Below are positions 15,431-62,392 of a DNA stretch of 64,000 nucleotides, piece by piece. The position numbers were made by a program, and so were the translations under genes. The stretch's first letter is position 1, and the number at the start of each line of letters is the position of its first letter. Below the pieces are notes generated by a model. It was not told the origin of the DNA, searched no databases, and was given only the letters and a program-made list of their open reading frames with translations. Source of the stretch: an uncultured Eubacteriales bacterium (GTDB lineage Bacteria; Bacillota; Clostridia; Lachnospirales; JAISER01); assembly GCA_964500895.1 (NCBI GenBank), contig CAZCQP010000002.1, forward strand, positions 1,812 through 65,811. Direction: 5' to 3'.

Positions 15431-18400
15431 GGAATCATCGCCCTTCCCTTGCGAGGGACGACTGTTGCCCCGGTTCTTATGTGTCCGCTCCTGTAATATT
15501 TCAATCCACGTCCCCTTGCGGGGGACGACTTTCATTTTAACTCTAATTGATTTATGTTTAAAATTTCAATCCACGTCCCCTTGCGGGGGACGACGGGTTT
15601 TTTGCAAGACAATAAAGTCAAATTGATTATTTAAATCCACGTCCCCTTGCGGGGGACGACGGTACACCTCTTTTCATAAATTTTAAATTCGTAAATTTAA
15701 ATCCACGTCCCCTTGCGGGGGACGACGGCCCCAATTTTATCCGCTGGCATATCCTTTGTTTATTTCAATCCACGTCCCCTTGCGGGGGACGACCCGTGCG
15801 GCTTCCCGTTCATCGTCCGTTTGAGCTTATTTCAATCCACGTCCCCTTGCGGGGGACGACCCCTCGTAGTCCTTGTTGATGACAAAGTCCTGTCCATTTC
15901 AATCCACGTCCCCTTGCGGGGGACGACTTGGTGGCATCAATACCATCACGCACAACAGCGGAATTTCAATCCACGTCCCCTTGCGGGGGACGACCACCCA
16001 CACCGTTGCCCTGGTTTTGCTTGGCTTGCAATTTCAATCCACGTCCCCTTGCGGGGGACGACAACATTTCTTCCATTGTTAGACCGGGAAAACATTATTT
16101 CAATCCACGTCCCCTTGCGGGGGACGACCCATTACGGAGGTACAGCTTTTTGATACAAATAACATTTCAATCCACGTCCCCTTGCGGGGGACGACATGCC
16201 CGTTGACCTGGCCCCGCCGAGGGCAGGGAGTATTTCAATCCACGTCCCCTTGCGGGGGACGACGCAATAAGTCCAAGCAATTGCGCAATGGGTGGAAATT
16301 TCAATCCACGTCCCCTTGCGGGGGACGACATGGCTGTTTTTAACTATTCCAATGATTTTTGCATTTCAATCCACGTCCCCTTGCGGGGGACGACTGGATG
16401 TAATTAACGCTAATGCCAGGTGGGACAGCATTTCAATCCACGTCCCCTTGCGGGGGACGACACTGGGCGCGGACGGCTGGGTGGGGGACTTTTATAATTT
16501 CAATCCACGTCCCCTTGCGGGGGACGACCCAAACAGGCAAGGAAATAACCATAGGCGCAAAGGATTTCAATCCACGTCCCCTTGCGGGGGACGACGGGTG
16601 CGCCCGGCGCAACTAAAATCCACCTATCCCCATTTCAATCCACGTCCCCTTGCGGGGGACGACGTCCTCACTCTTCCACTTTCTGATGCGACTTTCGGAT
16701 TTCAATCCACGTCCCCTTGCGGGGGACGACCCGAGTGTACCAGACCGTCGCCGATGAGGATGATTGATTTCAATCCACGTCCCCTTGCGGGGGACGACTG
16801 TCCTGGAGTTACTGATATCGGCATATCTAGCACATTTCAATCCACGTCCCCTTGCGGGGGACGACAATGTAACCTCTTGCGCTCTTGTACAAATTTTGGT
16901 TATTTCAATCCACGTCCCCTTGCGGGGGACGACATCTTATCCTGCGCTTTGAGCCGTCCTTCAAAAAATTTCAATCCACGTCCCCTTGCGGGGGACGACT
17001 TTTGTTTTGTTGCTACGCTGAACTCGTTCTTCTATTTCAATCCACGTCCCCTTGCGGGGGACGACAGTTTCTATTGGTGATGTATACTACAACCAATCTA
17101 TTTCAATCCACGTCCCCTTGCGGGGGACGACGTCCTCACTCTTCCACTTTCTGATGCGACTTTCGGATTTCAATCCACGTCCCCTTGCGGGGGACGACTA
17201 TGGGGCCTGTCCAATCAGCTGGGGTTTAACGATATTTCAATCCACGTCCCCTTGCGGGGGACGACGACGATGGATGATGACCGTTTGGAACTACTGAAAC
17301 ATTTCAATCCACGTCCCCTTGCGGGGGACGACGGGTCGGATTATACGCTACCGAATGTATTAAACATTTCAATCCACGTCCCCTTGCGGGGGACGACACA
17401 ATAAAATACATACCCTTCCCCTTTGGGCGAATTTCAATCCACGTCCCCTTGCGGGGGACGACGATACGGCGGCCATACAGATGTTCTTTACACGTATATT
17501 TCAATCCACGTCCCCTTGCGGGGGACGACTATTCGTCTGGAGCAAATTCTTCCTGGTCGATATTAATTTCAATCCACGTCCCCTTGCGGGGGACGACCAA
17601 GCAGGGGGATAGCAATAGATACTAAGCTCTTTATTTCAATCCACGTCCCCTTGCGGGGGACGACTGTTCTGTTTATTAATACTCCGTAATTTCAACAATT
17701 TCAATCCACGTCCCCTTGCGGGGGACGACCATTTCAAAAGGGTAAGCTAATGGAGGCGATATTCTATTTCAATCCACGTCCCCTTGCGGGGGACGACACT
17801 ATGCTATCTAAGTATAATCAAAAAAAAACAAGATTTCAATCCACGTCCCCTTGCGGGGGACGACTCTTCGCTCATGTCATTTGATATAAATATTTTTATT
17901 TCAATCCTCGTCCCCTTGCGGGGGACGACTGACGATGCTGCCGTTATACCGGGCGTTATGCTATTTCAATCCACGTCCCCTTGCGGGGGACGACGACCAC
18001 TTCATCTTGTGGCATGACCTTGAGGCCATTTCAATCCACGTCCCCTTGCGGGGGACGACATTAGACGGGCAATGGAGGTACAATCGCCTAGTCAATTTCA
18101 ATCCACGTCCCCTTGCGGGGGACGACCCGGATGGACTTGCTACCGGTTGAGGTCAAAGAATTTCAATCCACGTCCCCTTGCGGGGGACGACGGTAAATCA
18201 TAATGGTCTTCGTCATCTATAATAATTTCAATCCACGTCCCCTTGCGGGGGACGACATTCCTGTGGCAAACTCACTTAACGTCTCAACAGATATTTCAAT
18301 CCACGTCCCCTTGCGGGGGACGACATAAGCTCTACAGCATGGCTAAGTACGCCATCAGCAATTTCAATCCACGTCCCCTTGCGGGGGACGACTTAATGAC

Positions 18401-21400
18401 CAAGGTATCCCTAGGTTAATTGACCTATTTCAATCCACGTCCCCTTGCGGGGGACGACAACGTTTAAGCACTGCATTTCCAAATATAATCCCATTTCAAT
18501 CCACGTCCCCTTGCGGGGGACGACTGTAGGATGGGCTGCGTTTTTAAGCGAAATCAAGATTTCAATCCACGTCCCCTTGCGGGGGACGACTTCAATTTGT
18601 TTTGTTCGGACAATTTGTCAACAGATTTCAATCCACGTCCCCTTGCGGGGGACGACTTTATTCGGGGTATTAAACAAATCAAGCTCATTAGCATTTCAAT
18701 CCACGTCCCCTTGCGGGGGACGACAATGCCATAGCCTTTAATATCGGCCATGGCATTTTATTTCAATCCACGTCCCCTTGCGGGGGACGACGTTTGGGGA
18801 TGCGGTTAAGGGCTTGCATTTGTACGATTTCAATCCACGTCCCCTTGCGGGGGACGACGCCTGATTACATGAAAACGCAGGAGCGACTGAATATTTCAAT
18901 CCACGTCCCCTTGCGGGGGACGACTGAACCGTGGCCAGTACGACAATACCGACCAATATATTTCAATCCACGTCCCCTTGCGGGGGACGACAAATATCGG
19001 CCGAACTGGCGTAAGCAGTTATAATATTTCAATCCACGTCCCCTTGCGGGGGACGACATCGTGCCCCCGAAGCCGGTGCCCAGGTAATTAAAAATTTCAA
19101 TCCACGTCCCCTTGCGGGGGACGACCACTTGCAACCCATGACTGCCAAGCAAAAGCCGGAGATTTCAATCCACGTCCCCTTGCGGGGGACGACTGGCTGT
19201 AACATTGGCATCATTGATGACCCCATTAAATTTCAATCCACGTCCCCTTGCGGGGGACGACACCACTCATAAGCCAATTCAAAAATGCAAGTTGCTATTT
19301 CAATCCACGTCCCCTTGCGGGGGACGACAGTTGCTGGACGAATGATTGATATAATTTCAGATATTTCAATCCACGTCCCCTTGCGGGGGACGACAGTTTG
19401 CGCCGACAATCGTAATATGACCGCCGGGATTTCAATCCACGTCCCCTTGCGGGGGACGACGAAACCGACACCGTATTAACGGCAACCTACGAAAACATTT
19501 CAATCCACGTCCCCTTGCGGGGGACGACACCAGTACAGATTGCCTATGTATCTTGCAGATGGATTTCAATCCACGTCCCCTTGCGGGGGACGACGATAGC
19601 ATAACACAGGTTGACGTTCGCCGAGTAAAATTTCAATCCACGTCCCCTTGCGGGGGACGACCTCTGCCATTTCTCATGTATGGCGTCGCCTTCTGCATTT
19701 CAATCCACGTCCCCTTGCGGGGGACGACCCAATCTGGGCTTTTACGTCAACTTGCCTTTCTTATTTCAATCCACGTCCCCTTGCGGGGGACGACAACGAG
19801 GATAGGCTACATAACAAACACAAACGAGCATTTCAATCCACGTCCCCTTGCGGGGGACGACTGGGTTTAAAATCCTCTCAAGCAAGTTTTTGTTTGATTT
19901 CAATCCACGTCCCCTTGCGGGGGACGACTAACATCGAGATGGCATTAGCAAAAGGTGACAAGATTTCAATCCACGTCCCCTTGCGGGGGACGACCTTTTG
20001 TTCAAAGTAACAACTTTTTGTTTACAAGATTTCAATCCACGTCCCCTTGCGGGGGACGACCTCATTGCTGCTTGTCAACGCAGGGTTGTTAACTATTTCA
20101 ATCCACGTCCCCTTGCGGGGGACGACAGCTTACATAGTAGCGCCTATCACCGGAGAAACTATTATTTCAATCCACGTCCCCTTGCGGGGGACGACGAAAG
20201 CAACCCAAAAGCGCCGGTTACTGTATTCAAATTTCAATCCACGTCCCCTTGCGGGGGACGACCTTGCGCTATTTTGTAATTTAAGCGCTGACTGTTCGAT
20301 TTCAATCCACGTCCCCTTGCGGGGGACGACTGCTTAGTTCGTAGCAATCTTCTCCCAAATCGCTATTTCAATCCACGTCCCCTTGCGGGGGACGACTGGA
20401 GGCGCTTAGCGATAAATATGCCGCACTGCAAATTTCAATCCACGTCCCCTTGCGGGGGACGACAATTCTGGCGCTATCAATGCATTGAACTTTAACGATA
20501 TTTCAATCCACGTCCCCTTGCGGGGGACGACGCCAGCAAGTCGACTACAATATCACGGAACACCTCTAGTCGATTTCAATCCACGTCCCCTTGCGGGGGA
20601 CGACACATAAATACGCTGGGGCTTACCTCCTACATCTGGATTTCAATCCACGTCCCCTTGCGGGGGACGACGACGAAGAACCTCGTCAACCAGCATAGCC
20701 TCTTTATTTCAATCCACGTCCCCTTGCGGGGGACGACAATTACCTGTCCTGCTTATTGTTGGATTTTGAGAATATTTCAATCCACGTCCCCTTGCGGGGG
20801 ACGACTCCACGCCTTTTGCCTGACCGTTTGCTCCATTGATTTCAATCCACGTCCCCTTGCGGGGGACGACCCCTTCATCCCTATAAATGTGCTCATCAAA
20901 AATTATTTCAATCCACGTCCCCTTGCGGGGGACGACAAGGCTTTTATGTTTTACATTCCATTCCCGTCAAATTTCAATCCACGTCCCCTTGCGGGGGACG
21001 ACGTAGTTTTGCCGGTGTTAAAAATTCGATTGGTGCAATTTCAATCCACGTCCCCTTGCGGGGGACGACAAGCCTGTCAAATCTGTGGGGGCGTTTTTCA
21101 AGGTATTTCAATCCACGTCCCCTTGCGGGGGACGACAATGTCGATGTCAAACAAGGCTTTAGTGGTCATGATTTCAATCCACGTCCCCTTGCGGGGGACG
21201 ACAGTATTCTTCGCTTGCTGTTGGCAGGCCCTTAACAATTTCAATCCACGTCCCCTTGCGGGGGACGACACGGTTTTAAATTTATCAAGCGTATCCCTCA
21301 ACAATTTCAATCCACGTCCCCTTGCGGGGGACGACATCTATGGATACACCATCAGATAGTATGGTTTTGCATTTCAATCCACGTCCCCTTGCGGGGGACG

Positions 21401-24400
21401 ACGGGTAGGCGCTGGTGCAGAGACGCTTCCTGGCGATATTTCAATCCACGTCCCCTTGCGGGGGACGACCAGACAAGTCATATTGCAGCAATGACTTTGG
21501 GTTATTTCAATCCACGTCCCCTTGCGGGGGACGACCGCCCCGCCATAAGGTAGGGGCTATAATTATATACCATTTCAATCCACGTCCCCTTGCGGGGGAC
21601 GACGGCCATCTTCCAGCAAGTGCGTTAGCCACGGGATGATTTCAATCCACGTCCCCTTGCGGGGGACGACCCAACTGGGTTAACGAGTGTGTCTTTATCT
21701 ATGTTATTTCAATCCACGTCCCCTTGCGGGGGACGACCTTTTAAGTCCTTAGTTATGTGCAACCCTGTTTATTTCAATCCACGTCCCCTTGCGGGGGACG
21801 ACATAAGTCTAACTTTGTTCTCGTGGTTTCTATCAAGATTTCAATCCACGTCCCCTTGCGGGGGACGACCATAACCTCCATAACCCAAATGCAAGAGCGA
21901 GAGCAATTTCAATCCACGTCCCCTTGCGGGGGACGACGCTTGCGCTTCGTTATTTGCGCGTTCTACAGCTTATTTCAATCCACGTCCCCTTGCGGGGGAC
22001 GACTCTGGTTAACATGCGTATCGCTCCTTGTTAGTTTTATTTCAATCCACGTCCCCTTGCGGGGGACGACGCGGATTATTTTGTCGGGGTTATTTATCAT
22101 TAACATTTCAATCCACGTCCCCTTGCGGGGGACGACAATGCCGACTGTAACGGCAGTTACAATATTATTAATTTCAATCCACGTCCCCTTGCGGGGGACG
22201 ACATGGCTTTACATTTAAGCAAAAAGCACGACATAAATTTCAATCCACGTCCCCTTGCGGGGGACGACAAGGTGCGTCCGTTCCGTCCTCATCTATATCC
22301 CAGCATTTCAATCCACGTCCCCTTGCGGGGGACGACTAGCCACCAAAAGATTGTGTTGCTTTTTGAGATAAATTTCAATCCACGTCCCCTTGCGGGGGAC
22401 GACATTTTACCCCTTTCGGCTGTGCAGCCCTTATAAATTTCAATCCACGTCCCCTTGCGGGGGACGACTTGATACTGGTTGCCTTTAATAGCCGTTATTT
22501 TGTATTTCAATCCACGTCCCCTTGCGGGGGACGACTTAGGCTAATGGATGTAATGGGTAAGGGTTGTAATATTTCAATCCACGTCCCCTTGCGGGGGACG
22601 ACTTAGGCGGCAAGACGTTTTTTGAAAAGGCAGTAGAAATTTCAATCCACGTCCCCTTGCGGGGGACGACCTCAACGCTGTTATTACTGTCATGCGTCAA
22701 AACATTTCAATCCACGTCCCCTTGCGGGGGACGACTATTTTGTCGATTATGTTTGGAACTTTATTTCCATTTCAATCCACGTCCCCTTGCGGGGGACGAC
22801 TTTAACTTCAAAGTTTCATAGTTGTCGAGTATTACATTTCAATCCACGTCCCCTTGCGGGGGACGACGTCGCTATCGCAACCCATCCTGCTTGCGCAAGT
22901 GTATTTCAATCCACGTCCCCTTGCGGGGGACGACTCTTTTATCTGGTCCCTTAAGGCTTGTTGCTCATCAATTTCAATCCACGTCCCCTTGCGGGGGACG
23001 ACGTTGGCTTGCTTATGTAATTGTGTCAAACAACAAAGATTTCAATCCACGTCCCCTTGCGGGGGACGACCAAAAACAAAAAACCAGGTTTCAGTTATCC
23101 TCTATTTCAATCCACGTCCCCTTGCGGGGGACGACCCACCACTACTGTCCAATCTTCCTGGATGAGCAATTTCAATCCACGTCCCCTTGCGGGGGACGAC
23201 TCAAGTAGATACCACAAGGATTTTTAGCCAGTATATTTCAATCCACGTCCCCTTGCGGGGGACGACTGGCAGTGAGAGGCGGGGAAATTTCGGTTTGCGA
23301 TATTTCAATCCACGTCCCCTTGCGGGGGACGACTACAACAGGCTTAAATCACTTATGCTGCATGCCAATTTCAATCCACGTCCCCTTGCGGGGGACGACT
23401 AAGGCGCATGAGGCCAACAGAGCAGCCAGAAAATTTCAATCCACGTCCCCTTGCGGGGGACGACTGCAGTAGGATTTAAGCTGGGCTTCAAGGTCTTTGA
23501 TTTCAATCCACGTCCCCTTGCGGGGGACGACGGGTAAGGGTAAGGGTTGTAATGGGGGAGGGAGGATTTCAATCCACGTCCCCTTGCGGGGGACGACGCC
23601 TTGCCGCCAAAGATAACCCATTGCTGTTTAAATTTCAATCCACGTCCCCTTGCGGGGGACGACCCATGTGCCTATTGTTAACCGTGGCAATAGCTTTTAT
23701 TTCAATCCACGTCCCCTTGCGGGGGACGACTAAAGCGTTGCCAATTTCAACCTGTATTTCTTCTATTTCAATCCACGTCCCCTTGCGGGGGACGACTTAA
23801 CTAAAAATTTAAACAGGTGGTGCATTTAATATTTCAATCCACGTCCCCTTGCGGGGGACGACCACACAAGTAACACGCAAGTAACACGCTTAGTAGAATT
23901 TCAATCCACGTCCCCTTGCGGGGGACGACAGCGATTGCTGACATAAGACAATACTTTTCATCAATTTCAATCCACGTCCCCTTGCGGGGGACGACAGCAG
24001 CACTCGTATAATAAACTCCAGCGTACTGGATTTCAATCCACGTCCCCTTGCGGGGGACGACATGTTTTCTTGCGAAATAACGTCCTGTGCTGTTTTATTT
24101 CAATCCACGTCCCCTTGCGGGGGACGACTAAGTCTGGATAAAGAAATTATAAAAACCGGATTTATTTCAATCCACGTCCCCTTGCGGGGGACGACCATCA
24201 AGTCTGGTGTATCAATCTTAAGATTTTTTATTTCAATCCACGTCCCCTTGCGGGGGACGACTCACTGTCGGCCGCATACCCGTTTATGGACGATATTTCA
24301 ATCCACGTCCCCTTGCGGGGGACGACCCCTGCCCCTGAAATTTTTTCTGCTATTGCCATCGATTTCAATCCACGTCCCCTTGCGGGGGACGACGAAATTA

Positions 24401-27400
24401 AGCCTAACGAAGACCGTGAGCTTGGAATTTCAATCCACGTCCCCTTGCGGGGGACGACATTTTTTACCGGCATTGCCGGGGATTACCAAAGCAATTTCAA
24501 TCCACGTCCCCTTGCGGGGGACGACTAAGGCTTTTATGTTTTACATTCCATTCCCGTCAAATTTCAATCCACGTCCCCTTGCGGGGGACGACGGTGTCCG
24601 TGAGCAACATAAAAGCCGCCCTGCATATAATTTCAATCCACGTCCCCTTGCGGGGGACGACTGAAATTAAGCCTAACGAAGACCGTGAGCTTGGAATTTC
24701 AATCCACGTCCCCTTGCGGGGGACGACTCCGCTCGTTGTTTTGTCGTTACTAATTTTTATCATTTCAATCCACGTCCCCTTGCGGGGGACGACATCCATA
24801 GATACTCCAATGCAAGCCTCAATAAATATTTCAATCCACGTCCCCTTGCGGGGGACGACCCAAAGTCCGCCCCGTCTGGCACTACATCTGCTGGATTTCA
24901 ATCCACGTCCCCTTGCGGGGGACGACGCCCTTGAATATTATTCTACTTCCGTTCGGGAACTTATTTCAATCCACGTCCCCTTGCGGGGGACGACCAGAGC
25001 AATACAATACGCTCTTAGGGCTTCCTGCTATTTCAATCCACGTCCCCTTGCGGGGGACGACTCGGAACGAAGCTTATCGATATGCCGTACTGGTTATTTC
25101 AATCCACGTCCCCTTGCGGGGGACGACCGATGCTCTCAAGCGATTCATTCACTGCTTCTTCATTTCAATCCACGTCCCCTTGCGGGGGACGACATAAACG
25201 AGTTCGGGTTTCCTGTTATTAGCAAAGAATTTCAATCCACGTCCCCTTGCGGGGGACGACTGATTCAGAGGCAAGCAATCCTAATTTGCTAACGATTTCA
25301 ATCCACGTCCCCTTGCGGGGGACGACAAAGCTTAACGAAACTACAGTGACGGCCGCACAAATGATTTCAATCCACGTCCCCTTGCGGGGGACGACCGCAG
25401 AACAGTATTGGTCGTGGATTTGTTGATTTTATTTCAATCCACGTCCCCTTGCGGGGGACGACTGATATAATTGCTCGCTACCTCTTAATGCGTTATTATT
25501 TCAATCCACGTCCCCTTGCGGGGGACGACTGACGAAAACAACAACATTAAAGCAGGGTTTAAAATTTCAATCCACGTCCCCTTGCGGGGGACGACAAATT
25601 CTACAACCGCAACGATTGACCGCAGAATCAATTTCAATCCACGTCCCCTTGCGGGGGACGACGGGCGCAACCAAGGGCGAGCTAAAAGCGAATTACAAAT
25701 TTCAATCCACGTCCCCTTGCGGGGGACGACTTCTGCCGCACCTTTTTTGCCAAGCGCTTCACGGAAATTTCAATCCACGTCCCCTTGCGGGGGACGACCC
25801 TTTCCATAACGATAATCGGCCTAGCGCATCCGTATTTCAATCCACGTCCCCTTGCGGGGGACGACGATGACACCGGGCAAGGGTAATTTCTTCCGTATTT
25901 CAATCCACGTCCCCTTGCGGGGGACGACCACAGCAGATAGCGCAGAGCCACGTACAATTAATATTTCAATCCACGTCCCCTTGCGGGGGACGACGTTTGA
26001 CGAGTGTATGAGGGTTTTGAAACCCAATGATTTCAATCCACGTCCCCTTGCGGGGGACGACGTAAAGGGCAATAATAGCCAAACATTTGCCATAACGATT
26101 TCAATCCACGTCCCCTTGCGGGGGACGACTTGTCACAGCTTGACATTGCAAAGATTGAGCTTGACATTTCAATCCACGTCCCCTTGCGGGGGACGACGAC
26201 GCAAGTTGATGTTGATACCGATATTTTAAACATTTCAATCCACGTCCCCTTGCGGGGGACGACATTGGGACACAGCTTCAAAACTGCTGCTGCGGCATTA
26301 TTTCAATCCACGTCCCCTTGCGGGGGACGACGTGTTGCGTTCGCTCAAAACGTTCCAAACTTAACGGATTTCAATCCACGTCCCCTTGCGGGGGACGACC
26401 ACAAGGCGTTTACAATTCAGCAACGCCTATAGAGAATTTCAATCCACGTCCCCTTGCGGGGGACGACAAGCCAAGCAGCCACTTTAGCCGCCGAATATAG
26501 AAATTTCAATCCACGTCCCCTTGCGGGGGACGACATTTGATTCCGCTGATGATGCTATGGCCGAAACTATTTCAATCCACGTCCCCTTGCGGGGGACGAC
26601 ATGGTTACACGCAGTACGCATAAGGAGGCAGGGATATTTCAATCCACGTCCCCTTGCGGGGGACGACAAATGCGTTTGATTTGCCGCCAGATTATTTTCA
26701 ATTTCAATCCACGTCCCCTTGCGGGGGACGACATAAATGGCTGAAACTCACTGGAAAAAACTTAATTTCAATCCACGTCCCCTTGCGGGGGACGACTTGG
26801 TCATGGAGCTGTTAACCTTCCGCCCGCTAGTTTCTGTATCTACGTCGCCTTGTGGGGGTCTAGTATGTTTATTGGGTTTGGAGTACAAAAAAATTTCAAT
26901 TTCAATCCACGTCCCCTTGCGGGGGACGACGCTTCGTCAATTTCGGCTTGTAGTTGTTCGGTTTATTTCAATCCACGTCCCCTTGCGGGGGACGACACTA
27001 GCAGCCGGTGGAATTATTTTATAAGCGAAAAATTTCAATCCACGTCCCCTTGCGGGGGACGACGTGTCATAATCGGCATATTTAGCTTGTTCTTGTTATT
27101 TCAATCCACGTCCCCTTGCGGGGGACGACTAATTGCGTTTGCTGTGATGGCCGCATCATCTGTAGATTTCAATCCACGTCCCCTTGCGGGGGACGACGCC
27201 ACTTGTCAATCTCTGCTTGTGCGTCATCAACATTTCAATCCACGTCCCCTTGCGGGGGACGACCCCCGTCAATTTTTGCTGATCCGGCAACATACGTATT
27301 TCAATCCACGTCCCCTTGCGGGGGACGACCATTGACCAACCGTTCTGACCGAGATTATATTGTATTTCAATCCACGTCCCCTTGCGGGGGACGACCCATA

Positions 27401-28463
27401 TGGCAAATAATTATAGAGGTGATTACATGATATTTCAATCCACGTCCCCTTGCGGGGGACGACAATGTAACTTGGCTAAAGCCACGAATGCGGTTTGATA
27501 TTTCAATCCACGTCCCCTTGCGGGGGACGACAATAAATCACATCCAATTGTTTGTTTCTATTGTGCATTTCAATCCACGTCCCCTTGCGGGGGACGACGG
27601 CGTTATATTGTGCGGTGCTTGTAGTAAAAAACATTTCAATCCACGTCCCCTTGCGGGGGACGACGTTCAATGTAAATCATTAGCAAGTCATCAGACAAAA
27701 TTTCAATCCACGTCCCCTTGCGGGGGACGACTTCGCCCATCGAGCAAGGTCTTTTGTTATTTGCATTTCAATCCACGTCCCCTTGCGGGGGACGACGGGT
27801 GGAGCCAGTGGGAGAGTTTTAACACAATCGGATTTCAATCCACGTCCCCTTGCGGGGGACGACTTTCCTGTAATTTTTTCAAGCTCTGCGGAAAGTTTTA
27901 TTTCAATCCACGTCCCCTTGCGGGGGACGACGGCACGATTATCACCAACCCTTCACATTTACAAAATTTCAATCCACGTCCCCTTGCGGGGGACGACCCT
28001 CATGGGCTGCCGATGCCTGGGCCTGGGGAAAAATTTCAATCCACGTCCCCTTGCGGGGGACGACAATCGAAAAAGGCCCAAGCTACTGCTATTTCGGCGA
28101 TTTCAATCCACGTCCCCTTGCGGGGGACGACATTGCAATGTCACGGAGTTGCCCGAAACAGCAATATTTCAATCCACGTCCCCTTGCGGGGGACGACTTG
28201 TGACGCCACTTTTAGCCTAAACAACAGCATTATTTCAATCCACGTCCCCTTGCGGGGGACGACGACATGATTGGAGACACCAATGATTTGCTTGGTGGTA
28301 TTTCAATCCACGTCCCCTTGCGGGGGACGACTAATTGTCAATAGGTAAATTTGATTATTTATATGATTTCAATCCACGTCCCCTTGCGGGGGACGACTGA
28401 GGCAAGGGACGAATTGCAAGCATTGAAACAGATTTCAATCCACGTCCCCTTGCGGGGGACGAC
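15431..28463 (-). CRISPR. Type I-C-like CRISPR array, 196 repeats (32 bp) and 195 spacers
   Basis: Plus-strand repeat is ATTTCAATCCACGTCCCCTTGCGGGGGACGAC; the minus strand reads GTCGTCCCCCGCAAGGGGACGTGGATTGAAAT. I listed every repeat start by hand, from 15431 to 28432, with spacing of 63-73 bp. Spacers are mostly 33-36 nt. The degenerate terminal repeat at 15431-15462 and the AT-rich leader next to cas2 set the polarity. Confidence 0.97.
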
Positions 28464-28632
28464 AGCAAAAATGCATACATTTAACTATCATTCAAGCAAA
28501 TAAACATACAACAATTACAAAAAACACCTATGACCAAGACAAAACGCCAATTTCCAAGCATGGCAATACCCCAAAACACCTTAATTTCCAGTGCGAAAGA
28601 TGCCCCAAAACCATGTACGCTTAAGGTTCGCA
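28464..28632 (-). promoter_or_regulatory. CRISPR leader
   Basis: 169-bp AT-rich, non-coding segment between the cas2 stop codon and the first (newest) repeat. Contains an internal 35-bp imperfect tandem duplication. Confidence 0.7.
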
Positions 28633-28923
28633 CTACACCATTAAAATGCCCTCCACGTCAAACCCTGGCTTAGCCCCAACATGGGTCACTTTCGTTTTGT
28701 AATTGTTTCCCAAGTTGTAAAAGCGCAGGCTATCCTTTTCCGCATCAATGAGCGCTTCCAGCTTGTGCTTCACCTCGGCCAACTGGGTTGCGTCCAGCAC
28801 GCATTCAAAAACTGAATTTTGAACCCTCTGCCCGTAATTGACACACTGTTTAGCCACCTGCCGCAGCCGTTTGCGCCCCTGGGCTGTTTCTGTGTTCACA
28901 TCATAAGTAATTAAAACAAGCAT
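28633..28923 (-). CDS. cas2: CRISPR-associated endoribonuclease Cas2
   Basis: 96 aa starting MLVLITYDV, a ferredoxin-like Cas2 pattern. The track ORF (148 aa) extends upstream into cas1, so I use the internal start. Confidence 0.9.
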   Translation of the reverse strand: MLVLITYDVNTETAQGRKRLRQVAKQCVNYGQRVQNSVFECVLDATQLAEVKHKLEALIDAEKDSLRFYNLGNNYKTKVTHVGAKPGFDVEGILMV

Positions 28924-28931
28924 CTGTTCAC

Positions 28932-29963
28932 CTACTTCCACAAAAATGGTGGATACGCCTCTAAGTCGCCCCGCAAATGCCGGGCCAGCAGCATGGCTTG
29001 CACGTGAGGCACTAATCCCCACTGTATTTTTTCTTCCAAAAACGGATGGGTAATGGTTTCCTGTTTGCGGGCTTGCCACGCACTTAGAAATGCTTTGCGT
29101 GCGGCATCATCCATAATGACGGCGCCATTTTCCTTTACGGTGAACCCTTTGGCATGAACTTCCCGCTTGTTAATGAGGGAAAGCACAAATCGGTCGGCCA
29201 GGATAGGGCGCATTTCTTCCATTAAATCCAGCGCAAGAGAGATGCGCCCGGGGCGGTCTCGGTGCAAAAAGCCCACGTAGGGGTCTAGCCCAACCCCTTC
29301 TAGCGCCGATGCTACATCGTTTGCCAGCATGGTGTACGCAAAGGAAAGCAGCGCATTCACTTTATCCAAAGGCGGTCTTCGGCTGCGGGTGTGAAATTGA
29401 AAGTCCTCTTTTTGCTGCAAAATCAACTGGTCTATGACACCAAAATACCGAGTGGCACTTTCGCCTTCCAGGCCACGCAATTGCTCAAGGTTTTCACAGT
29501 CTTTGATGGCATCTGTAGATTTTTTAATGAGTGCAGAAGCCTTTTTTAATTGCTCAACGTCAACCCGGGCGGCGTGGTCCCGGGTGGCCCGCTCTATGAC
29601 CCAGCGTGCATTATACAGCTTGCCGATAATCATGTTTTGTGCAATGAACAGGGACTGCTGCTCGTCATCTGAAACCCTGTACTGCTTTTTGCGCAGCAAC
29701 ACATTGCCATGCACTTCCCCCACAATGCGTGCCTGAAACCGGCCGCTGGGGCTTAAAAAGCAAAGGGCAATATTTTTTGCGGCACAGGCCCGCATGAGCG
29801 CTGGGCTTGCGCCTGTGTAGCCAAAAGTTACAATGCTTTCAACATTATGTAAAGGCAAACGGATGACTTCCTGCTCCTCTTTTCGCACGACGATGTTTTC
29901 CCCGTCTAAAGAAAGATAGTGTTCAGGGGTTGTGATATACAACGTGTTCAGCAATTTTCTCAT
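28932..29963 (-). CDS. cas1: CRISPR-associated endonuclease Cas1 (I-C type)
   Basis: 343 aa. N-terminus MRKLLNTLYITTPEHYLSLDGENIVV and conserved C-terminal region (FGYTGASP, LDLMEEMRP). Overlaps cas4 by 4 nt. Confidence 0.92.
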   Translation of the reverse strand: MRKLLNTLYITTPEHYLSLDGENIVVRKEEQEVIRLPLHNVESIVTFGYTGASPALMRACAAKNIALCFLSPSGRFQARIVGEVHGNVLLRKKQYRVSDDEQQSLFIAQNMIIGKLYNARWVIERATRDHAARVDVEQLKKASALIKKSTDAIKDCENLEQLRGLEGESATRYFGVIDQLILQQKEDFQFHTRSRRPPLDKVNALLSFAYTMLANDVASALEGVGLDPYVGFLHRDRPGRISLALDLMEEMRPILADRFVLSLINKREVHAKGFTVKENGAVIMDDAARKAFLSAWQARKQETITHPFLEEKIQWGLVPHVQAMLLARHLRGDLEAYPPFLWK

Positions 29964-30625
29964 GCGTCTGCCTCCCCAATTCTTGTTTGAATATAGTGGG
30001 CCACGGATGCCTTTTTCAGCATTTTAGGAAGGCAAAAGTCCGCCAACGAGCAGGACTTACAGGCTTTGTTAGGCTTACACTTGGGTGTGTGCCCCCGTTG
30101 GTAATGCTGGTGCATTTCTTTCAGCATGTCCTTAGCGGTTTGGCGTAGGGTTTGGGTGAAGGCGACTGGCAGCCTGCGCCTTGTTTCGCCGTAAAACAAA
30201 TAGCCTTCCTGAATATCACAGACAAACATTTCCTCTAAACATAATGCTTGTGCGCACAATTGCAGTTCGTCTGCGTCATTTTGCTTTGGTGCGCCTCGCT
30301 TATACTCCACCGGCACCACACGGTATGTACCATCCCGGCCATGAATGGTGATGCCACTTGCATCTTTCCAAAGCTCCACCACATCGCAGACACCGGATAT
30401 GCCCAGATCCCGGGACATCACCGGCATACTGCGGGTGATCAGCACATCGCCCCGCTTTTCCACAGAAGCTTCATGGGCTTTTTCGTGCAGAAATCTGCCT
30501 TCAAGGGTGAGCACATTTTCCTTCCATGCCTGTTCAACGTGAATCAGCCCCCACTGGCGGCGGCAAAAGGCAAAATGTTGTATGCCCGATAACGGGAGAA
30601 AGTCTTCTTCGTTAAACATCATCAA
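29960..30625 (-). CDS. cas4: CRISPR-associated exonuclease Cas4
   Basis: 221 aa. RecB-like motif (VPVEYKRG), N-terminal Cys (HFAFCRRQW) and C-terminal Cys cluster CKPNKACKSCSLADFC. Confidence 0.9.
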   Translation of the reverse strand: MMMFNEEDFLPLSGIQHFAFCRRQWGLIHVEQAWKENVLTLEGRFLHEKAHEASVEKRGDVLITRSMPVMSRDLGISGVCDVVELWKDASGITIHGRDGTYRVVPVEYKRGAPKQNDADELQLCAQALCLEEMFVCDIQEGYLFYGETRRRLPVAFTQTLRQTAKDMLKEMHQHYQRGHTPKCKPNKACKSCSLADFCLPKMLKKASVAHYIQTRIGEADA

Positions 30626-57526: not shown

Positions 57527-57730
57527 ATGAACATGAAAAAAACAAAACAAAGCATGGTGCGTGTTAAGCGGTATGTGCAGGTGTTAACCCCTCAGGGGGA
57601 TGTGACCCGAACCATAGACTTGCAATCGGTTTCTAAAGAGGAAGAAGACAGGTGGCTGGCGTGCGTTTTTCAACAGGCAATGGAGCGGCTGGGGTATGCG
57701 CCTGTTGAAAGAGATGGGAAGGTTTTATAA
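57527..57730 (+). CDS. Hypothetical 67-aa protein immediately upstream of the recombinase
   Basis: ORF with RBS ggaagggg. Its end lies 13 nt before the recombinase start codon. Confidence 0.4.
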   Translation: MNMKKTKQSMVRVKRYVQVLTPQGDVTRTIDLQSVSKEEEDRWLACVFQQAMERLGYAPVERDGKVL

Positions 57731-57743
57731 GGAGGTTGCGCCC

Positions 57744-59216
57744 ATGGCCATTGCGGCGGTGTATATAAGGGTTTCCACCGAAGACCAAACCGAATTTTCC
57801 CCAGAAGCCCAGTTAAGGGCCATAGGGCAATATGCGGAAAAAAACGGATACACCATAGAGGAAGATTTTATTTTTAGAGACGAAGGCATTTCCGGCAGGC
57901 GTGCAGACAAACGCCCGGCCTTTCAAAAAATGGTGGCCATGGCTAAAAGGAAGCCAGCGCCTTTTCGGGTAATATTGGTGCATAAATTTGACCGTTTTGC
58001 TCGATCACGGGAAGACAGCATTGTGTATAAGTCTTTGTTGAAACGGGAGTGTAACATTAAAGTGGTGAGCATTACGGAACAGCTTGAAGACGACAAGTTT
58101 TCGGTCATCTTAGAAGCCATGTTGGAAGCCATGGCGGAATATTACAGCCTGAACTTGTCCGAGGAAGTGAAAAAAGGGATGACGGAAAAAGCACGGCGGG
58201 GAGAATTACAAACCCCGGCCCCTTTTGGCTATCGCATGGTGAACGGACTACTCACCCCCCAACCGGAAGAAGCAGAAATGGTGCGTGAAATTTTTAGGCT
58301 TTATGTGAACGAACGCTTGAACTTGCGGTCCATTGCCAAGCACATGAACGGGCAGGGCTGTAAAACGAAACAAGGGAACAGCTTTGACACCCGAAGCATC
58401 ACCTACATTTTGTGTAACCCCACATATACAGGCAAAATGCGCTGGACTCCCACCGGCCCGGCAGCCAGCAGGTTTCATTTTGATAACCCGGACACTTGGG
58501 TGCTGGAGGGCAAACATCCAGCCATTGTAGGGGAACAAATGTGGCAGGAGGCCAACCGGCGCATCCGAGCAGACAAAAAGCAGAAAATTCCCTTGTATAC
58601 ACGGGATGGCAACGTGCAGACCCACTGGCTGCGGGGGGTGTTGCGCTGTGGCCATTGCGGAACCACCCTGTCTTACGGGAAAGGAGCTGAAGGCAAGCAA
58701 GGGGCTTACCGATGCAGCAAATATTTAACCGGGGGGTGCCCACAACCCCAGCGCATCACCGTGGGCAAAGCGGAACAAGCGGTACTGGATGTTTTACAAA
58801 AAGATGGTGCAGCGGTGCCTCCCATAGTTTTCCAAAAAAACAATACCCATTTACAGGAACAACAAGACACATGGATGCGCTGTAAAAAAATGATCACCAA
58901 GCTGCAAGACCGGCTGGAAAAAGCACGGGAACTGGTGCTGGCGGGAATAGATACAACAGAAGAATATAGGCAAAACAAACTAAAGATAGAGCAGCAAATG
59001 AAGGAAACCATAGAAAAAATGCAGACCATAGAACAGCAGCAAAAGATGCAGCAGGAAGAAAGGGAAGAAAAAAGGGTTGGTTCGGTGGCAGATATTCTGT
59101 TATCCCAAGCCAGCTTGACAGAAAAAAACAATGCCATCCGGCAATTGGTAAGTCAAATGGTTTATGATAAACAAAATGAAACGTTAGATATTTATTATTA
59201 TGCAGTAGAAACATAA
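57744..59216 (+). mobile_element. Large serine recombinase (resolvase N-domain + recombinase domain + zinc ribbon + coiled coil)
   Basis: N-terminus MAIAAVYIRVSTEDQ carries the catalytic Ser motif. Also has FDRFARS, a recombinase domain, a Cys-rich ribbon (CGHCGTTLSYG...YRCSKYLTGGC) and a Q/E-rich coiled coil. Start chosen behind RBS aaggagg. Confidence 0.88.
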
Positions 59217-59220
59217 ACCT

Positions 59221-59236
59221 TGGCATGAAATATGCA
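59221..59236 (+). promoter_or_regulatory. Candidate sigma-54 (-24/-12) promoter
   Basis: TGGCAT-gaaat-ATGCA against consensus TGGCAC-N5-TTGCW, with correct GG-N10-GC spacing. Lies 41 nt upstream of the next start codon. Confidence 0.5.
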
Positions 59237-59276
59237 TGTATAAACCAGCAGAGAAAAATTAGAAGGAGAGATACAA

Positions 59277-60038
59277 ATGAATCATATCATTGAAAGATTA
59301 AAAACATTACAGGGGCACACAGGATTTTATTATAAAAATATGGTTACGGGGGAAACATTGGCCTATCAGGAAAACGACACCTTTACCCCGGCCAGCATCA
59401 TTAAGCTGCCCATGCTTATGCAAATTTTTCGCATGGCGGCCAAAGGGGAAGCGGATTTAACTGAACGCATTAAAATCCGGCATGAAGACAAGGTGCCTAG
59501 TTGCGGGGCGCTTAACAGATTTACCGATGAGCCGGTGGTGGATATACGCACCTTATGCAACCTGATGACAATCATTAGCGACAACACCGCCACCAACGTG
59601 CTCATTTCCCATTACGGTACAGAGCGGCTGAATAAAGGCTTTGAGGAAATGGGCCTTGAAAAAACCAGAGTGAACCGGCGGTTATTTGATATGGAATCTG
59701 CCAGAAAAGGCATTTCAAACTATATAACGCCAAAAGAAATCGGTCAGCTATTGGAACAACTTTACAACCGTACTTTTGTGAATGAGGCCGTTTCACAAGA
59801 TATATTAAACATTTTACTGGAACAGCAGTTTGACCATAAAATTCCCGGCATGTTACCTCCCGGCACAAAGGTGGCCCACAAAACAGGGGAAGATGATGAC
59901 ATTTCCAACGATGTGGGCATTGTATACGCCAAAGCACCATTTGTGGTTTGCTTTGTGTCCAATAAAACCATCAACCATCCGTTTAATATGTTCATTCGGG
60001 AAACAACCTTAGAACTGTTTAACCAGTGCAATCAATGA
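59277..60038 (+). CDS. Class A beta-lactamase-related serine hydrolase
   Basis: 253 aa with SxxK (ASIIKLP), SDN (ISDNTATN) and KTG (HKTGED) motifs. No obvious signal peptide. Confidence 0.7.
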   Translation: MNHIIERLKTLQGHTGFYYKNMVTGETLAYQENDTFTPASIIKLPMLMQIFRMAAKGEADLTERIKIRHEDKVPSCGALNRFTDEPVVDIRTLCNLMTIISDNTATNVLISHYGTERLNKGFEEMGLEKTRVNRRLFDMESARKGISNYITPKEIGQLLEQLYNRTFVNEAVSQDILNILLEQQFDHKIPGMLPPGTKVAHKTGEDDDISNDVGIVYAKAPFVVCFVSNKTINHPFNMFIRETTLELFNQCNQ

Positions 60039-62002: not shown

Positions 62003-62379
62003 AGGCGGCCAGAAGTGTGACTGCCGATGGTATTACCAGCGCCGCCTCTGCCGTGGCCAATGGCCACCCATGCTACCCAATAGTTTGTACGTGCAACAGG
62101 TAGTCGGGGCGGCCAGTCGCCTAAGGTTAAGGCGGCTCAAGTATGTAAGCGGCCTGTGATGTCTGGCCGCCTTAGCGCTGGGCAAAGCCCAGCTTAAAAA
62201 CCGTAGAGAAGGCGGCCAGAAGTGTGACTGCCGATGGTATGCCAGCGCCGCCTCTGCCGTGGCCAATGGCCACCCATGCTACCCAAAAGTTCGTGCGTGC
62301 AGCAGGTAGCCAGGGCGGCCAGCAGCCAAAGGTTAAGGCGGCTCAAGTATGTAAGCGGCCTGTGATGTCTGGCCGCCTT
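62003..62379. repeat. Tandem pair (period 207 bp) of a ~171-bp GC-rich element with 11-12-nt terminal inverted repeats
   Basis: Unit 1 spans 62003-62173 and unit 2 spans 62209-62379. Each begins (A)AGGCGGCCAGA and ends TCTGGCCGCCTT. The first ~78 nt and last ~55 nt are nearly identical between units, while the central ~45 nt diverge. Confidence 0.85.
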
Positions 62380-62392
62380 AGCGATGCGCAGT

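Follow-up and report, generated by a model that had tools for sequence, protein, structure and literature searches.

A heavily decayed, non-functional repeat in perfect register inside a 196-repeat type I-C CRISPR array

The window analysed here, a stretch of DNA of 64,000 nucleotides, carries a very long CRISPR array together with its leader and the neighboring adaptation genes:

15431-28463, minus strand: type I-C CRISPR array of 196 repeats of 32 nt and 195 spacers of 31-41 nt (mode 35)
15431-15462, minus strand: true terminal (trailer-end) repeat #1, mismatched at 11/32 positions, all but one of which fall within RNA-sense positions 18-32
28464-28632, minus strand: leader, whose TTTTGCT end adjoins the first repeat and which holds the conserved inverted repeat GTGCGAA...TTCGCAC
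28633-30625, minus strand: adaptation genes cas2 (28633-28923), cas1 (28932-29963) and cas4 (29960-30625)

[quoted passage not shown] The consensus repeat in the minus-strand sense, GTCGTCCCCCGCAAGGGGACGTGGATTGAAAT, forms a stable stem-loop (7-bp stem, MFE -12.9 kcal/mol). Since type I-C arrays were defined by direct repeats of ~32 nt ending in ATTGAAA(N) and by spacers of ~33–37 nt, the spacer lengths (33–36 nt for 189 of the 195) and the repeat agree with this type. In addition, the adaptation genes match the profiles TIGR01573, TIGR03640 and TIGR00372, and Cas1 is of type I-C (TIGR03640, 511 bits for a cut-off of 385). The leader is conserved with those of relatives, as every related leader ends in TTTTGCT beside the first repeat. 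The repeat belongs with a family of 51 I-C arrays adjoining Cas1 relatives; an identical one occurs in none of the 80 loci (kept from Cas1 relatives in genome_contigs) that formed our comparison set, and in metagenome_contigs the exact consensus was found once, in a human-gut contig (L084) whose organism and spacers are different. None of the effector genes cas3, cas5c, cas8c and cas7c lies within the 64-kb window; in the closest relatives (L004 and L005), cas3-cas5-cas8c-cas7 stand upstream of cas4, and the effector genes of the present array may be located elsewhere in the genome. Note that a 124-aa ORF upstream of cas4, considered as a cas7 remnant, was rejected because it is antisense to an FMN-reductase gene.

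The repeats of this array are nearly uniform, 191 of the 196 being perfect. Repeats #4 and #5 have one common C>A change and #38 a single A>T change, giving 3 substitutions in 6,176 nt for the internal repeats other than #172 (n = 193). In the terminal repeat #1, the first 17 nt are almost unchanged, and the hairpin still folds (-11.9 kcal/mol). Repeat #172, counted from the left and hereafter called D, is the center of a dead unit with the following parts:

26765-26796, minus strand: perfect repeat #171, older-side boundary of the dead unit
26797-26831, minus strand: spacer between D and repeat #171 (older side), 35 nt, RNA sense ACTAGCGGGCGGAAGGTTAACAGCTCCATGACCAA
26832-26863, minus strand: degenerate repeat #172 (D), RNA sense CTAGACCCCCACAAGGCGACGTAGATACAGAA, with 10/32 substitutions
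26864-26898, minus strand: spacer between repeat #173 and D (younger side), 35 nt, RNA sense TGAAATTTTTTTGTACTCCAAACCCAATAAACATA
26899-26930, minus strand: perfect repeat #173, younger-side boundary of the dead unit

The window letters at 26830-26863 are GTTTCTGTATCTACGTCGCCTTGTGGGGGTCTAG, and both this sequence and the rank of 172 are exactly those given in the sequence-only reading. That reading had also counted more than 10 differences from the consensus; its statement of heavy degeneracy holds, but the ungapped count is exactly 10, and the alternative 34-nt parse (26830-26863) gives 8 substitutions plus a 2-nt insertion. The mismatches (positions 1, 3, 5, 11, 17, 23, 27, 28, 30 and 32) are scattered over the whole repeat, the longest stretch of pure consensus is at most 5 nt, and the substitutions comprise 3 transitions and 7 transversions, a mixed spectrum that favors neither adenine nor cytosine (hand count). 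D in its register agrees with the consensus at 22/32 nt, a resemblance that is not due to chance (P = 2.4e-7). We took as a functional I-C repeat one with the stem-loop and with the invariant 5′ GTC, G/C stem and 3′ GTGGATTGAAA handle; D has lost the stem-loop (MFE -1.5 kcal/mol, z = -0.24, vs -12.9 for the consensus), as the broken hairpin claimed earlier implied, and is changed at six family-invariant positions (1, 3, 17, 23, 28 and 30). Moreover, Rfam gave no CRISPR-DR match at D and a weak CRISPR-DR9 match at every neighboring repeat. Both flanking spacers measure 35 nt (33 and 35 nt under the 34-nt parse), and as the commonest spacer length here is also 35 nt, the register is kept, as had been stated; likewise, the perfect neighbors that had been described extend to 133 older and 24 younger repeats. 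D is a real, heavily decayed, non-functional repeat in perfect register, 24 units from the leader and 171 from the real trailer. None of its changes is found in the 24 younger repeats, which indicates that D never was the leader template repeat.

An exact-protein look-up of Cas2 and Cas1 returned three short-read contigs of the same strain (L001–L003). Of the collapsed array, L001 and L002 retain the leader, a repeat, the oldest spacer and the terminal repeat, so that terminal repeat #1 and the last spacer recur there, while L003 ends within the first repeat. An artefact of assembly or consensus, for instance a mis-polished long-read consensus where strains differ, could be suspected since the unit was found in no independent sequence, since the array is collapsed in the only other assemblies of the strain and since D, at 24 units from the leader, falls in the zone in which spacers that vary between strains typically yield to shared ones. 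We nevertheless regard it as quite improbable. Indeed, the window is 100% identical to the short-read contigs over 3,850 + 621 nt of array flanks (4.4 kb), showing that the consensus is accurate at least in the flanks, the 191 perfect repeats with their C5 and G5 runs are free of errors, and consensus errors, which are mostly indels and not ten substitutions as in D, would strike the strain-variable spacers rather than the shared repeat.

If D is taken as a true sequence, the first question is whether it decayed where it stands. The earlier argument that point mutation would hardly strike one repeat so often is fully supported by the numbers: ten changes fall in one repeat of an array with 191 perfect ones, and 3 changes in 193 repeats against 10 in D give a Poisson probability of ~1e-25, which makes independent in-place mutation impossible. 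Gradual neutral decay of one internal repeat, although consistent with scattered mismatches bearing no sign of constraint, is accordingly next to negligible, as the 170 positionally older repeats are nearly all perfect and as D, being deletable between its flanking perfect repeats, could not have outlived them in place. A single local event, either a break repaired from a diverged template or one-step clustered mutagenesis, with the flanking spacers being original, is a better candidate, yet still an unlikely one. It would account for changes confined to ~34 nt between perfect neighbors and for the 2-nt indel that accompanies the substitutions in the best alignment, and the nearby spacer #170 is the only 32-nt spacer of the array. 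However, error-prone repair does not generally yield ~30% substitutions, mismatches at both extreme ends of the repeat mean that a templated patch must reach into the spacers, and no template exists within the window. The mixed substitution spectrum (given above) also led us to reject hypermutation of D, whether adenine-directed (of the diversity-generating retroelement type) or of the deaminase type.

Comparison with related arrays bears on the origin of D. Among ~1,075 repeats in related arrays, we observed at most single-base indels, ~4 edits or one internal deletion, while recognisable terminal repeats of these arrays carry 4–16 mismatches and the array's own terminal repeat 11/32; the degeneracy of D is within the terminal-repeat range and outside the internal-repeat range. 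This is in line with the earlier remark that such decay typically marks the trailer end, and with I-C averages of ~4 mutations per 1000 nt in internal repeats and ~55 per 1000 nt in terminal repeats (PMC12839519). Apart from D, only terminal repeats show such deep decay in the array's family; the reading in which D was decayed before it reached its present position is favored. Moreover, D is 10 differences away from its own array's repeat and 12 or more away from each of 51 other I-C consensus repeats, which speaks against the import of a foreign repeat, the second possibility raised by the sequence-only reading. Like degenerate terminal repeats, D is a recognisable yet heavily substituted repeat copy; unlike them, it is internal, with a perfect repeat one spacer length on. 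In the terminal repeats of the present array and of L010, L016, L028 and L054, the leader-side half is kept and the trailer-side half is decayed, a pattern that D does not follow. Terminal repeats with scattered changes are also found in L004 (8 changes, hand count), L009 and L024, and the scatter in D consequently weakens its reading as a relic terminal repeat without excluding it.

The earlier proposal was that two arrays had been fused. In its strict end-to-end form, repeats #173–196 and D would have been a separate array, joined to the older array #1–171 by deletion of its own trailer and of the leader of the older array. Decay at the terminal-repeat level is what such a fusion would predict for D, and the locus has been rearranged before (cas3-cas5-cas8c-cas7 being absent here and present in the closest relatives). 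In addition, a fusion-type precursor exists in L052 (Paenibacillus brevis), where two same-orientation I-C arrays lie downstream of one cas operon; they differ from the present case in having different repeats and being 1,277 nt apart, whereas here the repeat is the same and no non-array DNA lies between. The spacer beside D is also peculiar: the first 6 RNA-sense nt of the younger-side spacer (window 26893-26898) copy the last 6 nt of repeat #173, the spacer ending in ATTTCA and the next repeat starting with ATTTCA. This overlap, proposed earlier as a junction scar, is indeed present and is the largest of the array (the runner-up being 4 nt), but with an array-wide expectation of ~0.05 for overlaps of at least 6 nt it is only marginally unusual and was taken as a coincidence. 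Against the fusion, the gap between D and #171 is exactly the modal 35 nt, which a random deletion would rarely give. These 35 nt before repeat #171, which end in ...CCATGACCAA, lack the conserved leader end TTTTGCT and resemble neither the trailer nor related loci. Furthermore, the repeat is identical on both sides of D with no variant marking either half, the spacers of the two sides do not differ in length (P = 0.88) or GC (P = 0.51), and the 5′ half of D is mutated where the own terminal repeat has kept its 5′ half. With no leader remnant, with scattered mismatches, and with identical repeats and spacers alike in length and GC on both sides, the two-array fusion was not upheld and has little probability left; there is no positive evidence for reading D as a seam between arrays. 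Note that a literature search on array fusion returned nothing relevant.

Altogether, we tentatively propose, with a confidence falling just short of an even chance, that D is a pseudo-repeat of the array's own repeat family that had already decayed and was placed by repeat-mediated recombination. D would have descended from this repeat family, its decay preceding its arrival at the present position, and repeats escaping array turnover (trailer-end repeats or those of a decaying array) would be the source. The perfect repeats on either side of D may then have served for a recombination that either joined a repeat-spacer block downstream of D or imported a spacer-D-spacer cassette; in both versions, exchange through the flanking repeats preserves the 67-nt register automatically. 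In bacterial genomes, short imports by recombination are usually recognised by substitutions that crowd together while the sequence on both sides is identical. As no stretch of pure consensus in D exceeds 5 nt, the exchange points must lie outside D, in the flanking perfect repeats or beyond, and for the same reason the candidate of D as a crossover product of a terminal and a normal repeat was rejected. Several observations nonetheless count against this recombination route. No donor sequence was found: the 27-nt core of D is absent from metagenome_contigs and viral_contigs and was not found as a donor in the fetched loci or in the rest of the window, and the 102-nt block, D, both spacers and the trailer gave nothing beyond chance against all fetched loci. 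The route also moves the puzzle to the donor, in which D would likewise have needed a good repeat one spacer downstream. In addition, the scatter of D is unlike terminal repeat #1, the spacers are alike in length and GC on both sides and have no targets found, and the other assemblies of the strain (L001–L003) do not resolve the unit. A related reading, possible but unlikely, is that D once closed an array of its own and has been preserved as its end, the 170 older units having been added behind it in register through recombination between repeats. Were this true, whole blocks of CRISPR memory could pass from one array into another, each splice remaining as a datable seam, and such splicing would have occurred in an array with only cas4-cas1-cas2 at its locus.

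For the pseudo-repeat that we favor, a consequence for guide production is predicted. Cas5c (also called Cas5d), the I-C processing nuclease that recognises the repeat hairpin, should not cut D, as expected from a repeat with no stem-loop and a mutated handle. With the handle lengths of published I-C work, the two flanking spacers would be locked in an unprocessed piece of ~134 nt (11 + 35 + 32 + 35 + 21) and would not yield working guides, so that the array probably expresses no guides from 2 of its 195 spacers. One could then ask whether D was retained for a function, as a processing stop silencing a self-targeting spacer, as a recombination barrier or as an internal promoter or terminator. 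Mutated repeats adjoining self-targeting spacers were reportedly described by Stern et al. in 2010. Here, the flanking spacers of D score 16 and 17 against the rest of the window, within the null of all spacers, no promoter-like or terminator-like site occurs at D on either strand, and one or two changes would have sufficed to block processing. As for a barrier, mutated repeats have been proposed to reduce deletion rates (PMC12839519, PMC8047081), but D would still be removable by recombination between #171 and #173, and a retained functional element appears very improbable.

The search for targets was negative at each scale: the whole array had no match in phage and plasmid records, five spacers had none in viral contigs, and the two spacers flanking D had none in phages, plasmids, viral contigs or the fetched loci. 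Two ORFs spanning D (95 and 161 aa) had no record on look-up, and a homology search with the 95-aa ORF matched only ORFs of arrays with the same repeat, the peptide of D being present in 0 of the 8 top matches inspected; one match (P0004) led to a locus of another organism (L085). In L084 and L085, a switch from GAAAT to GAAAC takes place inside an array bearing the same repeat as the present one. Such propagated variants resemble D as repeat polymorphisms usable as historical markers; they spread to later units, whereas D is a single unit.

Exactly this class of repeat has been described with CRISPRDetect (PMC4869251), which handles degenerated repeats that lie inside arrays, where they are concealed in over-long spacers or split the array; the examples come from Salmonella enterica and from Carboxydothermus hydrogenoformans, in which another tool splits an array in two. 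These examples are mostly indels or partial repeat deletions, whereas D keeps its length and has about one third of its bases substituted. The dead internal repeat is a known kind of array blemish, probably placed by recombination, and D alone changes nothing known about CRISPR biology. In practice, array finders would either break the present array in two, with 171 repeats in one part and 24 in the other, or list a ‘spacer’ of 102 nt. Given long-read arrays of sister strains, the D unit would be a handy fixed marker for the history of this very long array, and it could also serve to test the movement of spacer blocks between arrays. The spacer-D-spacer unit is marked by the k-mers TATCTACGTCGCCTTGTGGGGGTCTAG, CCGCCCGCTAGTTTCTGTATC and GGGGGTCTAGTATGTTTATTGG.

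The degenerate repeat (#172, counted from the left) lies inside a type I-C CRISPR array whose repeat reads ATTTCAATCCACGTCCCCTTGCGGGGGACGAC on the plus strand and GTCGTCCCCCGCAAGGGGACGTGGATTGAAAT on the minus strand, the latter being a classic type I-C repeat with an ATTGAAA(N) end and a 7-bp stem-loop (-12.9 kcal/mol). The locus comprises the following features:

15431-28463, minus strand, type I-C CRISPR array of 196 repeats of 32 nt and 195 spacers
15431-15462, true trailer repeat (#1), 11 mismatches
28464-28632, leader of 169 nt, between cas2 and the array
28633-28923, minus strand, cas2
28932-29963, minus strand, type I-C cas1 (TIGR03640 at 511 bits)
29960-30625, minus strand, cas4

Since the cas genes and the leader stand at the right on the minus strand, the array is transcribed from right to left, with the youngest spacers at the right end and the trailer at the left, the polarity already proposed by the sequence-only reading. 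Note that the leaders of the window and of six comparison loci (L004-L007, L016 and L028) have in common an inverted repeat, GTGCGAA-(~30 nt)-TTCGCAC, that immediately follows the cas2 stop, and that leaders of this I-C clade have an invariant TTTTGCT adjoining the first repeat.

The sequence of #172 is exactly as first read, and its heavy degeneracy holds, but the ‘more than 10’ differences come to 10 mismatches out of 32 in the ungapped alignment (26832-26863), or to 8 mismatches and a 2-nt insertion in the earlier 34-nt parse (26830-26863). The in-register identity of 22/32 (P = 2.4e-7) is far above chance, and #172 is thus a true relative of the array repeat. The hairpin has been lost (-1.5 kcal/mol, z = -0.24, versus -12.9 kcal/mol for the consensus), in agreement with the broken stem described before, and #172 is altered at six positions that are ≥95% invariant among 51 related I-C repeats. 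The Rfam family CRISPR-DR9 has weak minus-strand matches to all neighbouring repeats and none to #172, where no promoter-like or terminator-like site was found either. The spacers beside it measure 35 and 35 nt (33 and 35 nt with the 34-nt parse), the modal length of the array, so that the register is kept, and the neighbours are perfect on both sides (#39-171 and #173-196), both as claimed; the only deviating repeats in the whole array are #4 and #5 (shared C>A), #38 (A>T), the terminal repeat and #172. Independent point mutation was rightly considered unlikely, since 3 substitutions are found across the 6,176 nt of the 193 other internal repeats, a rate that gives ten independent changes in one repeat a probability of ~1e-25. 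Gradual decay in place is excluded, as hardly any change is seen in the 170 repeats that are older by position, and #172 would also have had no protection from deletion between perfect neighbours. A one-step local event of some kind is unlikely.

The decay of #172 was compared with 80 loci from a scan for Cas1 relatives, the closest of which (84–85% identity) are found in uncultured Clostridia MAGs; none of the 80 has a repeat identical to that of the window array. Among ~1,075 repeats of related arrays, irregularities of internal units are limited to loop single-base indels, ~4 edits in each of a few units at the trailer end and a single internal deletion, and none of the repeats has a third of its bases substituted. 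The recognisable terminal repeats of these arrays differ from their own consensus at 4–16 positions, and that of the closest relative (L004) is, by our own count from the sequence, changed at 8 scattered positions and broken in its stem. In a survey that left out repeats with more than nine mismatches, internal repeats of I-C arrays have ~4 and terminal ones ~55 mutations per 1000 nt (PMC12839519). Taken together, #172 displays a level of decay otherwise seen only at array ends. The proposed import of a foreign functional repeat is disfavoured by distance, since #172 is nearest to its own array's repeat (10 differences, versus at least 12 to each of 51 other I-C consensus sequences). The repeat of the window occurs in arrays of two human-gut contigs (L084 1-660 and L085 1-2225, minus strand), in which the oldest 2–3 units end in GAAAT, all younger ones end in GAAAC and the younger spacers invariably end in GT; this pattern would fit a leader-proximal repeat change copied into later units, or a repeat 2 nt longer.

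Decay at the array-end level would also be expected if two independent arrays had been joined end to end with #172 as the seam, and a comparable precursor arrangement exists in Paenibacillus brevis (L052, 11527-14534), where one cas operon is followed by two same-orientation I-C arrays separated by 1,277 nt, although these two arrays have different repeats. However, a second leader should leave a trace, and the TTTTGCT with which all related leaders end directly before the first repeat is absent from the 35 nt before #171 (the perfect repeat on the older side), which end in CCATGACCAA and resemble neither the trailer nor any sequence of the related loci or the window. In addition, a deletion would need to leave exactly a spacer-length gap by chance, and the repeat is identical on both sides of #172, with no difference between the spacers of the two sides in length (P = 0.88) or GC content (P = 0.51). 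The mismatches of #172 are evenly distributed over positions 1–32, whereas terminal repeat #1 is almost intact over its first 17 nt and decayed at positions 18–32, a difference that only weakens the idea of end-to-end joining, as mismatches are scattered in the terminal repeats of some relatives too. We regard such a joining of two independent arrays end to end as quite improbable. The 6-nt overlap formerly taken as a ‘junction scar’ is present at #173 (the perfect repeat on the younger side), where the spacer begins with TGAAAT after a repeat ending in TGAAAT (RNA sense), and is the largest in the array, but ~0.05 such overlaps are expected per array, and it points to no mechanism.

No independent sequence of the #172 unit was found, which speaks for an assembly or consensus artefact. 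Such an origin is nevertheless very doubtful, because three public short-read assemblies contain contigs of the same strain that match the window at 100% along 3,850 and 621 nt of array flanks, indicating an accurate consensus, because a repeat rich in C and G runs is free of errors in 191 copies, and because ten substitutions are not the usual error type. In two of these Logan contigs (L001 and L002, from the SRR10912415/16/18 set L001-L003), the 13-kb array is collapsed to the leader, one repeat, the oldest spacer and the terminal repeat; in the third (L003), the sequence breaks off within the first repeat.

Densely clustered substitutions flanked by identical sequence usually signal the import of a short segment by recombination. 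We tentatively favour the explanation that #172 decayed elsewhere beforehand and was brought in by repeat-mediated recombination. The unit would first have decayed while it formed the end of an array or belonged to a decaying sister array, and recombination between repeats would then have carried it to its present site, keeping the register automatically. This explanation overlaps with the fossil-terminal-repeat idea of the sequence-only reading but needs no end-to-end joining of two independent arrays. A crossover inside the repeat itself is ruled out as the origin of #172, since its longest pure-consensus stretch is at most 5 nt; any exchange points would thus fall within the perfect repeats on either side or farther out. 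In I-C systems, the stem-loop of the repeat is what the processing nuclease recognises, and cleavage takes place at its base. As #172 has no stem-loop and a mutated handle, cleavage there should fail, and the two flanking spacers would stay in one piece of ~134 nt and probably be lost as guides. Degenerated internal repeats that pose as over-long spacers or split arrays are a described annotation problem (PMC4869251), and reviews treat the interplay of repeat polymorphisms with deletion and array collapse (PMC8047081). #172 is a new, rather extreme instance of this known phenomenon in an uncultured Clostridia genome.

Several spacers are related in pairs (#19/#26, #83/#137, #135/#139 and #137/#138; e.g., 16664-16698 with 17132-17166, and 20937-20970 with 24526-24560): one is duplicated identically, two others are re-acquired with a 1-nt shift, and the neighbouring #137 and #138 have ~12 nt in common, on opposite strands. 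These pairs suggest that one target was sampled repeatedly or by primed acquisition. No targets were matched by the whole array among phage and plasmid records or by five spacers among viral contigs. Spacers of outlying length are found at 20532-20572 (41 nt), 25866-25896 (31 nt) and 26733-26764 (32 nt), the last lying one unit from #172.

The locus is arguably more notable than #172 itself, with 196 near-perfect repeats accompanied by cas4-cas1-cas2 alone and no cas3, cas5, cas8c or cas7 anywhere in the 64-kb window. In the closest relatives (L004 and L005), cas4 is preceded by ORFs of 719, 219, ~570 and ~297 aa, which, judged by size and order only, would correspond to a complete cas3-cas5-cas8c-cas7 set. 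The effector module has either been lost from the locus or acts from elsewhere in the genome. Divergent FMN-reductase-like genes begin ~90 nt upstream of cas4 in the window. Farther along, a 206-nt tandem repeat (62003-62390; 1.9 copies, 92% identical) lies between sigma-54 activator and alanine racemase genes, and a large serine recombinase gene adjoins a class A beta-lactamase-family gene (57696-60038), a pair that may represent a small mobile insertion.
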